DNA of 64,000 nucleotides, from sequence record OK254197.1; one strand, written 5' to 3'. This document shows positions 38,490-61,442 of the stretch, one piece after another. A program made the position numbers and the translations under genes. How positions within the stretch are numbered: position 1 is the first letter of the stretch; the number at the start of each line of letters is the position of its first letter. The notes beneath the pieces are model-generated. The model worked only from the letters and a program-made list of their open reading frames with translations. It did not search any database and was not told where the DNA came from. This DNA comes from Escherichia phage PNJ1902.

Positions 38490-38565
38490 CGACCGTTGGC
38501 TGAATGGCTTAGGCGAAGGATTGCAAATCCTTTTTATGTGAGTTCAAATCTCATGCGGTCGTCCA
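38490..38565 (+). tRNA. tRNA-Cys (anticodon GCA)
   Basis: Acceptor CGACCGT/GCGGTCG, anticodon stem AAGGA/TCCTT loop TTGCAAA, T-loop TTCAAAT, CCA. Confidence 0.6.
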
Positions 38566-38717
38566 ATTTGCTGAAAGAATTGTTTTAACAATTCAGGCAC
38601 GCGTAGGAACACTGTCTCCGTAATTGAAAGATGAGGCACGGTTTGGAGAGGTATGCCGCTACACGCTACGGTGCTAACTCCGTCTAGGTGAAAATCCTAG
38701 TCAGCAATATAAATTTA

Positions 38718-38800
38718 GGGTCGTTAGCCAAGCGGTTTGGCGGTGGACTGTTAATCCATGTCGAAAGACAACGTAGGTTCGAATCCTACACGGCCCGCCA
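38718..38800 (+). tRNA. tRNA with class II architecture (13-nt variable arm, G73) but apparent GUU anticodon
   Basis: Acceptor GGGTCGT/ACGGCCC, 3-bp D stem, anticodon stem GTGGA/TCCAT loop CTGTTAA, variable hairpin GTC-GAAA-GAC, T-arm GTAGG-TTCGAAT-CCTAC. Confidence 0.4.
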
Positions 38801-40001: not shown

Positions 40002-40160
40002 ATGAAACACAAGATAGCTCAAGTTTTTATGGCATTATGGTGTATGCCAGTAGCTATAACAGCATTTAATCTAGATACTTTTACTATAGAAGAAAAATGT
40101 ATCGGGTTAGTTAGCGGCTTTAGTATGCTGGGCTTATCCTTGTTGTGGTTGAAGAAATAA
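40002..40160 (+). CDS. Small hydrophobic protein
   Basis: 52 aa ORF with RBS AGGAAAG, hydrophobic core; below table cutoff. Confidence 0.4.
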   Translation: MKHKIAQVFMALWCMPVAITAFNLDTFTIEEKCIGLVSGFSMLGLSLLWLKK

Positions 40161-40346: not shown

Positions 40347-40514
40347 ATGAAAGTATTTCGATTAGTAGTAAGTGACAAACGTTTAGGTAAGAATACATCA
40401 AAATCCTTAATCGCTCATTACGGTAAAAATTGGGATGAAGTAATGGCAGAGTTTAATACTAATCACCCTTACTTGAAAGTTCACTCTATTAAAGAAGTAT
40501 ACAATGGTTACTAA
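40347..40514 (+). CDS. Small hypothetical protein
   Basis: 55 aa ORF with RBS GAGGA; below table cutoff. Confidence 0.35.
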   Translation: MKVFRLVVSDKRLGKNTSKSLIAHYGKNWDEVMAEFNTNHPYLKVHSIKEVYNGY

Positions 40515-40515
40515 T

Positions 40516-40594
40516 AGATCGCTAGCTCAATAGGTTTAGTAGCATCCGACTTTTAATCGGAAGGTTCTGGGTTCGAGTCCCAGGCGATCTACCA
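40516..40594 (+). tRNA. tRNA-Lys (anticodon UUU)
   Basis: Acceptor AGATCGC/GCGATCT, anticodon stem TCCGA/TCGGA loop CTTTTAA, T-arm CTGGG-TTCGAGT-CCCAG, CCA. Confidence 0.6.
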
Positions 40595-40879: not shown

Positions 40880-40954
40880 GGGCGGTTAGTTTATCTGGGA
40901 AAATACCTGACTTGCACTCAGGAGTGAGGAGTTCGACTCTCCTACTGTCCACCA
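40880..40954 (+). tRNA. tRNA-Ala (anticodon UGC)
   Basis: Anticodon stem CCTGA/TCAGG loop CTTGCAC, T-arm AGGAG-TTCGACT-CTCCT, CCA. Confidence 0.6.
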
Positions 40955-40972
40955 AATTAAAGGGTATGTAGT

Positions 40973-41473
40973 ATGAAGGTAGCTAAAAATGGGAGAAAAG
41001 ATAACTTAAATGAGTTAGAAATATTCCTCCACAATAACAAACTAGACGTAACCGCTAGTAATTACATGCAAATAGCTCTATGGTATAATGGGTATATAGT
41101 TAGGAAGGCCAATCCTAGTAAGGATAAGAAGTCAAATACATACCAAAAGAGACTAGAGCATAGCTATCAAAGATCCCTAAGAGTAGTACAGCTTTATTGT
41201 TATATCAATAATATAAATAATAAGCTGGGATATATTTATATAATATCTAATCCAGCTTTTCCAGGCTGGTTTAAAGTAGGAGCAGCCAAAGATGCTGAGA
41301 CTAGATTAAATACCTATCAAACATACTCCCCTTTTCGGGACTATGTATTAGAGTATTATAAACTAGTAGATAATTATGAACTCAAAGAAAAAGAAATCCT
41401 AAGTTCTTTTTCATCTAGAAATAATGAGTGGGTTCATGCTCCACTTGAAGAAATAATTGCTTGCGTGGCGTAA
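40973..41473 (+). CDS. T5orf172-domain (GIY-YIG-like) protein
   Basis: 166 aa; GYIYIISNP...KVGAA...RLNTYQT motif; 3' end overlaps tRNA-Leu start by ~15 nt. Confidence 0.55.
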   Translation: MKVAKNGRKDNLNELEIFLHNNKLDVTASNYMQIALWYNGYIVRKANPSKDKKSNTYQKRLEHSYQRSLRVVQLYCYINNINNKLGYIYIISNPAFPGWFKVGAAKDAETRLNTYQTYSPFRDYVLEYYKLVDNYELKEKEILSSFSSRNNEWVHAPLEEIIACVA

Positions 41474-41541
41474 TTGGTAGACGCGCGATCCTTAGGAGTT
41501 CGTGTTAATTCGTGTGGGTTCGAGTCCCTCCGCAAGCACCA
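41459..41541 (+). tRNA. tRNA-Leu (anticodon UAG), class II
   Basis: Perfect acceptor GCTTGCG/CGCAAGC, Leu-type D arm, loop CTTAGGA, long variable arm, A73, CCA. Confidence 0.55.
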
Positions 41542-41653: not shown

Positions 41654-41744
41654 GGAAGAGCAAATCGAATTGGCGACGAAAACCGCTTGGAAAGTGGCTG
41701 ACTGGTAAAACGGCTTGAGAGTTCAAATCTCTCCTCTTCCGCCA
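41654..41744 (+). tRNA. tRNA-Ser (anticodon GGA), class II
   Basis: Acceptor GGAAGAG/CTCTTCC, loop TTGGAAA, ~18-nt variable arm, T-arm GAGAG-TTCAAAT-CTCTC, G73, CCA. Confidence 0.5.
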
Positions 41745-41757
41745 AACAATTTATATG

Positions 41758-41851
41758 GTAGGTCAATCCAACGGCTGGCGCTGGACTCCGACTTGAAATC
41801 GGTTGATCGTAGTGATACGGTGTAAGGGTTCGATCCCCTTACCTACCTCCA
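41758..41851 (+). tRNA. tRNA-Ser (anticodon UGA), class II
   Basis: Perfect acceptor GGTAGGT/ACCTACC, loop CTTGAAA, long variable arm, T-loop TTCGATC, CCA. Confidence 0.5.
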
Positions 41852-42319: not shown

Positions 42320-42514
42320 ATGGCTGATTTCTGCAAACAATGCTCCATTGATATGTGGGGCAGAGATACTGGTGATCTTTCTGGTTTGATTACAGAAGCT
42401 GAAGTTAAAGAAGGCTACGGTGCTGTTGTGATTTGCGAGGGATGCGGAGTTATTCGAGTAGATCATGAAGGCAAACGTTTGGAAGAATCTGAGCCAACAA
42501 CAATTTTTCCGTAG
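42320..42514 (+). CDS. Cys-rich small protein
   Basis: 64 aa; CxxC...CxxC; RBS GGAAATAAAATATG. Confidence 0.5.
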   Translation: MADFCKQCSIDMWGRDTGDLSGLITEAEVKEGYGAVVICEGCGVIRVDHEGKRLEESEPTTIFP

Positions 42515-43537: not shown

Positions 43538-43831
43538 ATGAAACGTTATCTTTCTGTTATGTTCCAAACTGGTGGTCAACGCTATACTTATGAATTTCCT
43601 AGCTCTTGGAAGATCAAAGAAGGTGATCAAGTAGTAGTGTTAACACCGCGCGAGGGTTTCAAGGTAGTAACGGTTAAGCAAGTATTTCCAAAAGATCGTG
43701 AACCAGCTAAAGGCATTCGCTATAAGATGATTCATGGTGTAGTTCGTCAAGTACCACGAGCGGAAGTCGAAATCAAAGTAGATAAAGATGGTAAACTTAA
43801 ATATACCTCTTGCTTAGACGAGTTGCTATAA
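43538..43831 (+). CDS. Hypothetical protein
   Basis: 97 aa ORF. Confidence 0.55.
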   Translation: MKRYLSVMFQTGGQRYTYEFPSSWKIKEGDQVVVLTPREGFKVVTVKQVFPKDREPAKGIRYKMIHGVVRQVPRAEVEIKVDKDGKLKYTSCLDELL

Positions 43832-44037
43832 TGAGAATTACTTTCACAGAAAAGATTATGGGTAATGGTGTTATGATCATTACCGCATGGGATGGTAATC
43901 AGTGGTGTAGTGTTTCAGGTATTAAGCCTGAAGAACAAACACTAGAAAATATCTCAAAGATTAAGCGAAGAATGGCAGAACGTGCACGACTTCCAGGTGC
44001 GCCTAGAAATGGTAAACGTTCTGCAATTAAATATTAA
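43831..44037 (+). CDS. Hypothetical protein
   Basis: 68 aa from ATG 43831 (TAATG overlap). Confidence 0.45.
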   Translation: MRITFTEKIMGNGVMIITAWDGNQWCSVSGIKPEEQTLENISKIKRRMAERARLPGAPRNGKRSAIKY

Positions 44038-58246: not shown

Positions 58247-58693
58247 ATGAGAGAAAAAGTAAATGAATTACTAATCGAGGAAGCTAACAACTTTCCAATA
58301 AACAGGTTTATCAAATCGGATGGATCTATTAATAGAACTAAGATTAAGCAGCTACATCCTGACTTTCAACAAGAAGCACTAAACCTTATATTTATCAAGA
58401 AAGCTATTGCAGTTCATGGAGCTTTCTTTGGATATGAGCGTGTAAATTACAAAACAATGCAACAGCAAGTCGAGATCTATTGTCCAGATCATGATGGTTA
58501 TTACTGGCAAACTGCTAGATCTCATTTAGAAGGGCATGGTTGTCGACTGTGTGCACACAAGGTTGTGCAGCGTGTCACAGATTATGGAACCTATACCGTA
58601 CCAGCATGTTATCATAAATTTGTAGTTGACGATAATCATATAGTTTGGTATAATAAGTTTTCAAAGTTAAGAATGGAGATAAATAGTGAGTAG
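58247..58693 (+). CDS. Hypothetical protein, paralog of N-terminal half of 60714-61442
   Basis: ~148 aa; shared stretch KQLHPDFQQEALNLIFI...GYERVNYKT...QTARSHLEGHGC. Confidence 0.55.
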   Translation: MREKVNELLIEEANNFPINRFIKSDGSINRTKIKQLHPDFQQEALNLIFIKKAIAVHGAFFGYERVNYKTMQQQVEIYCPDHDGYYWQTARSHLEGHGCRLCAHKVVQRVTDYGTYTVPACYHKFVVDDNHIVWYNKFSKLRMEINSE

Positions 58694-59996: not shown

Positions 59997-60721
59997 TGAG
60001 TATAAAAAAGAATTTAGCAGAGATTATTAAGTTAGCTAGAGCTTGTAATGGGAAATATGTTTCTCAGCTTAATGAACTAGAGGCACATGCAGTAGCATTT
60101 TGTGCAGAGTTTTATCCTGCATACCTTAATGCTAGTGGACAGCCCAAATATAATAAAGATGCAGGAGAAGTTACGTTAGCTCCTTCATATATTAGCTTGC
60201 GTCGTCTAATCCAAACTGTTGATCCTACTATTAAAGGATTCTCAGCAGATTCATTCCACGTCTTTGCAGATAAAGAACTCCCGTATTTTAAAGAAGGAAA
60301 TGCAAAGTCATGTTTAGAATGTTATCCAAATATTCTGATGATTCCTCAAAAGCAATGTAAATACGATCATCTTCCTAGACTTACAAAGAAAGTAGAACCA
60401 CCTTATTCTTCTCTATCTGAATTAAAGCTAGGAATTGTATCTACACTTGCGCAGGTTCATCTAAGTATAGTTGACGACTCAACAACATCTAATCCTATTC
60501 TAGATGCTGCACACTTTGAAATTTTACGTGATCCTGAACAAGCTAGAAAAGTTGCAAAGTCTGTTAAGTTTGATATATCAACAATTCTTGACACTAAACA
60601 AGAAACTAGACCTAGAGGAAGTGTAGATTATTCTGCACTAAATTCCGAGTCATCTTATTTAGCAACATTCCTTTTCATGGCGTCAAAAGGGGTTATTCTA
60701 AAGGTTAATAAAGATGGATGA
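59996..60721 (+). CDS. Hypothetical protein
   Basis: 241 aa ORF. Confidence 0.55.
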   Translation: MSIKKNLAEIIKLARACNGKYVSQLNELEAHAVAFCAEFYPAYLNASGQPKYNKDAGEVTLAPSYISLRRLIQTVDPTIKGFSADSFHVFADKELPYFKEGNAKSCLECYPNILMIPQKQCKYDHLPRLTKKVEPPYSSLSELKLGIVSTLAQVHLSIVDDSTTSNPILDAAHFEILRDPEQARKVAKSVKFDISTILDTKQETRPRGSVDYSALNSESSYLATFLFMASKGVILKVNKDG

Positions 60722-61442
60722 TTTACGTGCTGAAATTAATAAAAAGCTACGCGAGGAAGCCAGGAGGTTTCCTCTTAAAAACTTTTTGAAGTCAAATGGC
60801 TCTACTAATATAACGAAGATTAGGCAACTTCACCCTGACTTCCAACAAGAGGCCTTAAACCTTATCTTTATTAGGAAAGCTTTAAAAGTCCAGAAAGAAG
60901 AGTATGGGTATGAAAGAGTTAATTATAAGACAGCCAATCAGTTAGTAGAGATATGGTGCTATAAACACAAAGGATACTTTATGCAAACTGCTAGATCTCA
61001 CCTAGATGGGCACGGTTGTTTACAATGTGCTAGAGAAAGCAACCTCAATACACCTATCGAGAAACCGGAAGTAGAAGAAGATGTTCAGTTCCCCACATAT
61101 CTCTATATCTTCTCTAATAAAGATCAGTCTAGGAAGAAATTAAAGACAAAGATTGGGGTTTCTAGAGAGCCACATCAAAGGTTTAAGAATCTAGAGTATG
61201 ATAAATTACGTGTGCCGGGTTTTGAAGATATGGAAGTATTTGGTATCTACCAATATAAGAAAGGATCGAAAGAACTCGCTTACAAAATAGAACACCAAGC
61301 ACATAAATTTTTCGAGAATAAATTTGCTAATCATTATAAATTCGATGGAGCAAAAGAGATATTCAACATTAAAGCTGTAGAGGCAGAAGAATATCTATTA
61401 AGTCAAGGTTGCATAAAAATTTACCCAACTCCAAACTCATGA
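60714..61442 (+). CDS. Two-domain protein: N-terminal domain paralogous to 58247-58693 plus C-terminal T5orf172 (GIY-YIG-like) domain
   Basis: 242 aa; C-terminal YLYIFSN...KIGVSREP...RFKNL motif. Confidence 0.55.
   Translation: MDDLRAEINKKLREEARRFPLKNFLKSNGSTNITKIRQLHPDFQQEALNLIFIRKALKVQKEEYGYERVNYKTANQLVEIWCYKHKGYFMQTARSHLDGHGCLQCARESNLNTPIEKPEVEEDVQFPTYLYIFSNKDQSRKKLKTKIGVSREPHQRFKNLEYDKLRVPGFEDMEVFGIYQYKKGSKELAYKIEHQAHKFFENKFANHYKFDGAKEIFNIKAVEAEEYLLSQGCIKIYPTPNS

Follow-up and report, generated by a model that had tools for sequence, protein, structure and literature searches.

We analysed a stretch of 64,000 nucleotides (nt) of Escherichia phage PNJ1902 (sequence record OK254197.1; the whole stretch is called the window hereafter), a T5-like phage of the genus Tequintavirus, with a focus on an open reading frame (ORF) in its transfer RNA (tRNA) cluster, ORF 40973-41473. 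This ORF probably represents a free-standing homing-endonuclease gene lodged among the tRNA genes of a T5-like phage, which is predicted to encode an active T5orf172-type nuclease and to be inherited together with a private tRNA allele. Two features stand out, namely that the ending inside the downstream tRNA gene is conserved in genes of this kind and that the gene is tightly paired with a private allele of this tRNA.

The ORF shares 15 nt with tRNA-Leu

An overlap between the 3' end of the ORF and a tRNA-Leu gene had already been noticed in a preliminary description made from the sequence alone, and both ARAGORN and Rfam supported it: ORF 40973-41473 and tRNA-Leu 41459-41541 have 15 nt in common. 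The description had placed the stop codon inside the acceptor stem, however, and this has to be corrected. The first nucleotide of the tRNA is the first base of codon 163, and the shared segment reads GCT TGC GTG GCG TAA (A-C-V-A-stop), so that the TAA corresponds to tRNA nt 13-15 at the junction of D-stem and D-loop, i.e. in the D-arm. The entire 5' acceptor strand of tRNA-Leu (nt 1-7) codes for residues 163-165. At the other end, the ATG lies 18 nt past the CCA end of tRNA-Ala, with an AAGGG motif 8 nt before it; in homologues, the distance from the preceding tRNA to the start is 15-18 nt.

The dual-coding segment is conserved in two metagenomic homologues, L026 (an Epseptimavirus-like contig) and L028. 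In L028, a change of acceptor G7 to A7 replaces Val165 by Met, a matching change in the 3' strand compensates for it, and a second compensatory pair is located in the anticodon stem of tRNA-Leu. Thus, the protein and the tRNA are both under selection. As compared with the homologue of 87% protein identity, the ratio of non-synonymous to synonymous substitution rates (dN/dS) was 0.06 (dN 0.068, dS 1.06), which rules out a spurious ORF. ORF 40973-41473 is a real gene under strong purifying selection.

The ORF and its tRNA-Leu allele form one variable unit

The locus region was matched in 459 phage records, the closest of which were the Salmonella phages ABTNLsp9, STP-SP2 and SE11 (97-98.6% identity). 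The ORF was found in 13 of these records (95.9-99.6% nucleotide identity), corresponding to 10 distinct phages after removal of RefSeq/GenBank duplicates, and about 97% of the genomes that are otherwise near-identical lack it. In 8 of the 13 GenBank records, the DNA match of the ORF covers no annotated feature; the probable reason is that the reading frame extends into the tRNA, and annotation pipelines therefore undercount such genes.

Empty sites consist of tRNA-Ala, a 5-nt spacer and a tRNA-Leu(UAG) of a very different allele, which is either allele A (77 nt, acceptor GCGTGAT), allele B (85 nt, acceptor GGGGCTA) or, in the empty sites of Epseptimaviruses, allele D (87 nt, acceptor GGGGATG). 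All three differ from the allele of the window (allele C) throughout the acceptor and anticodon stems. At 100% identity, allele C occurred in the 13 ORF-carrying records and in no others, and its next match among 50,697 records reached 82%. The same pairing of ORF and allele C was observed in the metagenomic homologues of 87% and 57% identity. A single slot in phages that are otherwise 95-99% identical hence holds at least four very different tRNA-Leu(UAG) alleles; the commonest, allele A, is atypical of tRNA-Leu in that its variable loop is short.

Directly 3' of tRNA-Leu, the sequence common to all genomes resumes (CACCAAATTTGATGG...), so the variable unit comprises the leader, the ORF and tRNA-Leu, and identity breaks sharply at the borders of this cassette. 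The tRNA-Ala allele is unlinked to the ORF, as all four combinations exist: the allele of the window occurs without the ORF in phages smaug and Kenya-K16, and the other allele occurs with the ORF in K18 and L026. The four ORF-carrying loci with enough flanking sequence displayed at least three downstream haplotypes. Identity between these haplotypes is 77-83%, and every one of them has a counterpart in an ORF-less genome at 98-99%. Near-identical cassettes (98-99.6%) are therefore carried on flanks that differ by about 20%. A comparison of presence and absence among T5-like phages had been suggested as a check for homing, and the occurrence in 13 of 459 records, the breaks at the borders and the unlike flanks together constitute a mobility signature. 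Judged by these alignments, the unit of ORF and tRNA shows the presence/absence pattern and the recombination footprint at its borders by which intronless homing genes are recognised.

The encoded protein is a predicted GIY-YIG-like nuclease

The 166-amino-acid (aa) protein matched the Pfam family T5orf172 (PF10544) with E 1.5e-10 and 41.9 bits (cut-off 20), as well as the related family MUG113 (E 7e-8). These were the sole matches at E <= 1, and the canonical GIY-YIG model (PF01541) gave none; by its profile matches, the protein is thus not a member of the T4 Seg family, which is of the canonical GIY-YIG type. In PHROGs, it matched phrog_5032 (function unknown) with E 6.6e-33. Seven residues (Y89, N93, K101, G103, R111, D123 and E152) are invariant among 12 aligned sequences and fall in a G-Y-I-Y ... 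K-V-G ... R ... E-W pattern, the one expected of the T5orf172 subfamily of GIY-YIG proteins (PMC10448857). The proposed check for GIY-YIG catalytic residues hence gave a positive outcome, with the Tyr, Arg and Glu positions invariant throughout the alignment of 12. By homology only, these residues would be equivalent to the catalytic residues of I-TevI or Odn (PMC10448857).

The AlphaFold2 model, built on an input of seven sequences, had a mean predicted local distance difference test (pLDDT) score of 88.9 and a predicted template modelling (pTM) score of 0.76, and is thus a confident one. Its N-terminal part (residues 7-78) comprises three helices, and residues 85-165 form a beta-beta-alpha-beta-alpha-beta-alpha domain, in which the GIY-YIG alpha/beta core (beta-beta-alpha-beta-alpha) is present, and the nearest structural likeness of the predicted fold was to GIY-YIG nucleases (SLX1). 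Both the Pfam match and the predicted fold agree with the original assignment of the ORF as a T5orf172 (GIY-YIG-like) gene. The N-terminal domain is helical and without cysteine; scans of it against Pfam and NCBIfam returned nothing usable, and it is presumed to be a DNA-binding module.

A sigma-70-like site was noticed inside the ORF at 41061-41089 (+), with ATTACA, a 17-nt spacing, TATAAT and an upstream TG (10/12 matches), which could in principle transcribe tRNA-Leu apart from the ORF. This site is weak because the region holds fewer promoter-like sites than shuffled sequence, for which reason the promoter/terminator scan around the ORF was uninformative.

T5orf172 genes ending in tRNAs recur in other lineages

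The 15-nt overlap is kept at 87%, 57% and 46% protein identity, and it is therefore not a chance one-off. Across five distinct T5orf172 lineages, overlaps of 15, 15, 22, 24 and 10 nt were found (Table 1), and T5orf172 genes in tRNA clusters usually begin 15-21 nt past the upstream tRNA. In the curated BASEL genomes TrudiRoth, GreteKellenberger and IrmaTschudi, all six coding sequences (CDS) of the tRNA clusters that are annotated as 'putative homing endonuclease' overlap the next tRNA by 5-10 nt, compared with 1 of the 24 other CDS, the rest of which end 1-388 nt before a tRNA. Because the three phages share orthologues, these counts are descriptive only.

We also considered whether close T5orf172 relatives generally adjoin tRNAs. 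This idea was ruled out by 80 loci from IMG/VR, in which no tRNA lies within about 1.5 kb of 73 of the 81 T5orf172 relatives. The eight others, which are in tRNA-bearing loci, all end between -20 and +22 nt from a tRNA start. As a consequence of this control, tRNA association is regarded as a trait of the tRNA-cluster lineages and not of the domain family. One unrelated environmental contig of 65 kb (L112, IMGVR_UViG_3300033121_000398) contains nine tRNAs in 3.2 kb and two T5orf172 ORFs, 1222-1761 and 2090-2701, which end 20 or 10 nt ahead of a tRNA (Tyr, Met).

The recurring overlaps of 10 and 15 nt result from conserved tRNA positions that spell stop codons. TAG is present at nt 8-10 (U8-A9-G10) in 12 of the 21 tRNAs of the window, and a stop at nt 13-15 in 6 of the 21. 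The broader idea that every frame entering a tRNA stops at once proved only partly true: a stop was encountered within 25 nt in 56% of the tRNA-by-frame combinations, compared with 38% for random positions, with the excess concentrated at nt 8-10 and nt 13-15. The tRNA-encoded protein tails differ between lineages (ACVA, SWGLV, GSTIG and KLDC). Neither the overlap of endonuclease genes with tRNAs in T5-like phages nor the pairing of such genes with a private tRNA allele was found to be discussed in the searchable literature, which covers few subscription journals.

Proposed mechanism and alternative explanations

In the mechanism that we infer, which involves nuclease activity, a cleavage target, homing and an effect of tRNA processing, the mobile unit would comprise the 18-nt leader, 486 nt of coding sequence and the private tRNA-Leu(UAG) allele, which supplies the last four codons and the stop. 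This unit would replace the 5-nt spacer between tRNA-Ala and tRNA-Leu together with the resident tRNA-Leu. During a mixed infection, the nuclease would cut the ORF-less locus in or near tRNA-Leu or at the Ala-Leu junction, and repair off the ORF-carrying genome would copy the gene along with the overlapping tRNA allele, which is presumably uncleavable. T4 SegB is described as acting in this way (PMC2330249). As allele C is inseparable from the gene and unlike alleles A, B and D, it is a plausible immunity determinant. The overlap itself most likely originated in a spacer without spare sequence, where the gene would borrow its stop from conserved tRNA positions (N13-A14-R15 here, U8-A9-G10 in relatives), and one consequence of it is an absolute linkage of the gene to its own tRNA allele. 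RNase P cleavage at 41459 (tRNA nt 1) would deprive the mRNA of its final four codons and its stop; by general knowledge of RNA processing, only unprocessed transcripts could therefore give a normally terminated protein.

Several observations weigh against homing. A cycle of gain, fixation, decay and loss predicts ORF-less genomes with allele C as well as decayed ORF copies, and their absence thus counts against it: no ORF-less genome with allele C was present in the 50,697 records, and no decayed copy was found. Likewise, the copy of the Tequintavirus and that of the Epseptimavirus-like contig are separated by a dS of about 1, which could also fit old vertical descent with many losses. The gene would then be ancestral to the Markadamsvirinae at this site, and its patchiness would reflect deletion rather than gain by homing; the identical Ala-ORF-Leu site in both backgrounds and a divergence compatible with the genus level suit this explanation. 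Simple loss should, however, leave allele C behind, which the same negative search contradicts, while the empty sites hold three unrelated tRNA-Leu alleles and the near-identical cassettes lie on dissimilar flanks. We consider such an ancestral origin very unlikely. It is unlikely too that the protein has been domesticated as an accessory T5orf172 protein, no longer homing, spread by ordinary recombination and kept for its benefit to the phage, acting as a nuclease or as a regulator that binds DNA, either to counter rival phages or satellites or to control phage genes, as with ICP1 Odn and PLE CapR. Non-homing roles of T5orf172 proteins are documented (PMC10448857, PMC8263062), and the low dN/dS and the lack of decayed copies would befit a useful gene. 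Purifying selection is equally expected of a homing gene that is still spreading, though, and domestication does not account for the rarity of the gene among near-identical genomes, its precise insertion in a 5-nt spacer with replacement of the neighbouring tRNA, or flank haplotypes that change exactly at the gene borders, all of which are classic marks of homing elements.

For the overlap, it is quite possible, if a little short of probable, that it has no function of its own and is a by-product of a gene squeezed into a tRNA-tRNA spacer and ending at the first stop that the tRNA provides. The stops fall on conserved tRNA positions, and since the tails are not conserved between lineages, the overlap may be mere compaction. 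Ordinary ORFs of this cluster likewise stop close to tRNAs, at distances of 2-13 nt, and hence the overlap may be the extreme end of a general compaction, which is a further point against the homing explanation. Against a simple by-product, on the other hand, stand the contrast between endonuclease genes and other ORFs in the curated clusters (6/6 vs 1/24) and the persistence of the 15-nt overlap down to 46-57% protein identity. A more elaborate possibility, which we regard as doubtful, is that the overlap serves as a linkage and control device common to a class of 'tRNA-hitched' homing endonucleases, by providing an inseparable cleavage-immune allele and throttling by RNase P. By linkage, the gene would never be recombined away from its private allele, and the endonuclease would drive whole tRNA alleles through T5-like populations. 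By throttling, processed transcripts would yield only protein that is tagged by transfer-messenger RNA and degraded, thereby limiting a potentially toxic nuclease.

Table 1. Features of the T5orf172 loci in the window and of related genes that end at or near tRNAs
Feature	Position	Strand	Details
tRNA-Ala(UGC)	40880-40954	+	ARAGORN; Rfam 54.8 bits; upstream neighbour of the ORF
18-nt leader with AAGGG Shine-Dalgarno-like motif	40955-40972	+	sequence reading; left end of inserted cassette
T5orf172 gene (GIY-YIG superfamily), putative free-standing homing endonuclease	40973-41473	+	ATG start; 166 aa
N-terminal three-helix domain, residues 1-78	40973-41206	+
Nuclease domain, residues 85-166	41225-41470	+	Y89 41237-41239; R111 41303-41305; E152 41426-41428
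Dual-coding 15 nt	41459-41473	+	codons 163-166 (ACVA) and TAA; tRNA-Leu nt 1-15
tRNA-Leu(UAG), allele C	41459-41541	+	acceptor GCTTGCG; ARAGORN; Rfam tRNA model 51.1 bits; right end of cassette
tRNA-Leu(UAG) slot, locus L001	961-1037		compared with window 41459-41541
tRNA-Leu(UAG) slot, locus L003	938-1022		compared with window 41459-41541
tRNA-Leu(UAG) slot, locus L004	1284-1370		compared with window 41459-41541
L026, Epseptimavirus-like contig			87% identity to window protein; tRNA-Leu, allele C type; 15 nt overlap
L028			57% identity to window protein; tRNA-Leu, allele C type; 15 nt overlap
L029 / L030			46% identity to window protein; tRNA-Gln(UUG); 15 nt overlap, TAA at nt 13-15
Homologues in Vibrio phages PG07 and Pylo			42-44% identity to window protein; tRNA-Glu; 22 nt overlap
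Homologue in a Klebsiella phage			tRNA-Pro; abuts (0 nt)
Homologue in Vibrio phage phi 3			tRNA-Arg; ends 16 nt short of tRNA
T5p067 (phage T5)			tRNA-Asn; 24 nt overlap
157-aa T5orf172 lineage			tRNA-Lys; 10 nt overlap
Paralog of the ORF022-like N-domain, free-standing, without nuclease domain (phage T5 ORF022 family)	58247-58693	+	phrog_4605, E 2.2e-86
Second T5orf172 gene	60714-61442	+	242 aa; Pfam T5orf172
ORF022-like N-domain, residues 1-106	60714-61031	+
T5orf172 domain, residues 129-226	61098-61391	+	Pfam E 4.4e-6, 27.6 bits (cut-off 20)

A second T5orf172 gene carries a fused N-domain

Another gene of the window, 60714-61442, had been described as a recurrence of the same C-terminal domain. 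This stood at the level of the Pfam family and failed at the level of copies, as the two T5orf172 domains of the window gave a BLASTP E of 1.4 and 18% identity in the alignment. The associated claim that the N-domain of this gene also exists as a free-standing paralog was borne out, with 64% identity over 103 aa (E 8e-48) between residues 4-106 and ORF 58247-58693, which corresponds to phage T5 ORF022 (AAX11959.1). The N-domain of the 60714 protein matched phrog_4605 (E 3.5e-60), and the protein also matched phrog_681 and phrog_18411, which are annotated as endonuclease / homing endonuclease. The full-length fusion was present in 34 of 407 records; the N-domain part alone was matched in 373 records at about 70% identity, and these matches represent the widespread free-standing paralog. 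Judged by these similarities, the 60714 gene is a sporadic fusion of an ORF022-like N-domain with a distantly related T5orf172 domain. The N-domain paralogy and the distribution among records support the suggested domain shuffling for this gene, a process already described for T5orf172 homing endonucleases (PMC10448857). The fusion is annotated as 'endonuclease' in S124, and 'homing endonuclease' is among the features under its match in HMD-P4.

A C-x2-H ... H-x3-H-G-C-x2-C motif is conserved between the 60714 and 58247 proteins and resembles the zinc-finger modules reported for the T5orf172 gene class (PMC10448857). No Pfam model, DUF723 and DUF4397 included, matched this region at E <= 10, NCBIfam likewise returned nothing usable, and the PHROG cross-matches were only to phrog_681 and phrog_559, both endonuclease families; a link to CapR/DUF723 is therefore hypothetical. 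For the ORF022-like gene, which ends at 58693 (+), the start is ambiguous between 58145 (longest ORF), 58205 and 58247. Transferred by offset, the CDS start in S124 falls on 58205 and would give a product as long as T5 ORF022 (162 aa), while the similarity to the fused paralog starts at 58247, 2 nt past the stop of the preceding ORF.

Other features of the tRNA cluster

The small ordinary ORFs 40002-40160, 40347-40514, 42320-42514 and 43810-44037 (+) end 5, 2, 13 and 2 nt before tRNA-Pro, tRNA-Lys, tRNA-Gln and tRNA-Ile, respectively. ORFs and tRNAs are packed in the cluster as if the 5' processing of tRNAs also set the 3' ends of mRNAs.

Two further sites are empty in the window. One is 38566-38717 (152 nt), between tRNA-Cys (38490-38565) and tRNA-Asn (38718-38800), a spacer that holds T5p067 in phage T5. 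The other is at 40347-40514 / tRNA-Lys 40516-40594. Between the homologue of the 55-aa ORF (40347-40514) and tRNA-Lys, a 157-aa T5orf172 gene is found in L026, TrudiRoth, IrmaTschudi and several IMG/VR loci, and wherever this gene is present the tRNA-Lys allele differs from that of the window. In HMD-P4, a 'homing endonuclease' CDS overlaps a different tRNA-Lys allele by 10 nt.

Between tRNA-Leu and tRNA-His lie two class-II tRNA-like elements, 41654-41740 and 41757-41847 (+), which were not called by ARAGORN. The element at 41757-41847 matched the Rfam tRNA-Sec model with 38.3 bits (E 5e-6, below gathering) and has UGA in its anticodon loop (Ser-like). The one at 41654-41740 reached 19.7 bits only, carries GGA (Ser-like) and looks degenerate. 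In ABTNLsp9, the features listed for the matching region include a 'tRNA-Ser'.

Significance and comparison with known systems

The tRNA alleles of T5-like phages can decide whether a phage escapes tRNA-cleaving host defences; the tRNA-Lys of T5, for instance, neutralises PARIS (PMC11464382). If endonuclease genes do drive the tRNA alleles fused to them, they would shape the rate at which counter-defence alleles spread, and they would explain the extreme allelic diversity at single tRNA slots. Should the overlap be a linkage device, it might bear on the arms race between phages and tRNA-cleaving defences, PARIS among them.

The T5orf172 gene class and the domain shuffling within it are already known. 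T5-like phages are enriched in T5orf172 homing-endonuclease genes (Barth, Dunham & Seed 2023, PMC10448857), which sit at the boundaries of genetic exchange and have their DNA-binding and nuclease modules swapped (PMC10448857). The present gene shares its Pfam domain with the T5orf172 genes of ICP1, T5-like and other phages, and the module swapping matches the 60714 fusion. Unlike the surveyed genes, which are linked to essential genes (terminase, ribonucleotide reductase, capsid) and bear CapR, DUF723 or DUF4397 zinc fingers, it encodes a 166-aa protein with a helical, cysteine-free N-domain and resides in a tRNA cluster; overlap with tRNAs is not discussed in that survey (PMC10448857).

Closer parallels exist in T5p067 and the 'putative homing endonucleases' of BASEL Epseptimaviruses, T5orf172 paralogues that occupy the space between two tRNAs and terminate within the second of these. 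The BASEL genes overlap tRNA-Asp, tRNA-Lys, tRNA-Glu and tRNA-Ser by 5-10 nt. They differ from the present gene in belonging to other lineages (about 28-41% identity in the nuclease domain) and in using other tRNAs, and the Cys-Asn and Lys sites of the window are empty. The T5 tRNA region is also said to encode the site-specific endonucleases F-TflI, F-TflII and F-TflIV, and an 'H-N-H endonuclease F-TflII' annotation occurs in a relative. These are located in the same region, but they are of the HNH family and not of the T5orf172/GIY-YIG type. We know of no report of segB, the comparable gene of phage T4, sharing its stop codon with a tRNA.

T4 SegB is a GIY-YIG homing endonuclease encoded in the T4 tRNA cluster, with a recognition site that includes the T-loop motif (PMC2330249). 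Its target is located within tRNA genes, and through its action the tRNA region of T4 is inherited preferentially (PMC2330249). Like segB, the present ORF is a free-standing gene of the GIY-YIG superfamily that is located between tRNA genes and absent from close relatives (PMC2330249). Whereas SegB belongs to the canonical GIY-YIG/Seg family, the protein studied here is of the T5orf172/MUG113 type, and its homing is suggested by analogy. ORF 40973 is therefore best read as an uncharacterised, often unannotated T5orf172 homing-endonuclease gene of T5-like phages, which would be functionally analogous to T4 SegB.
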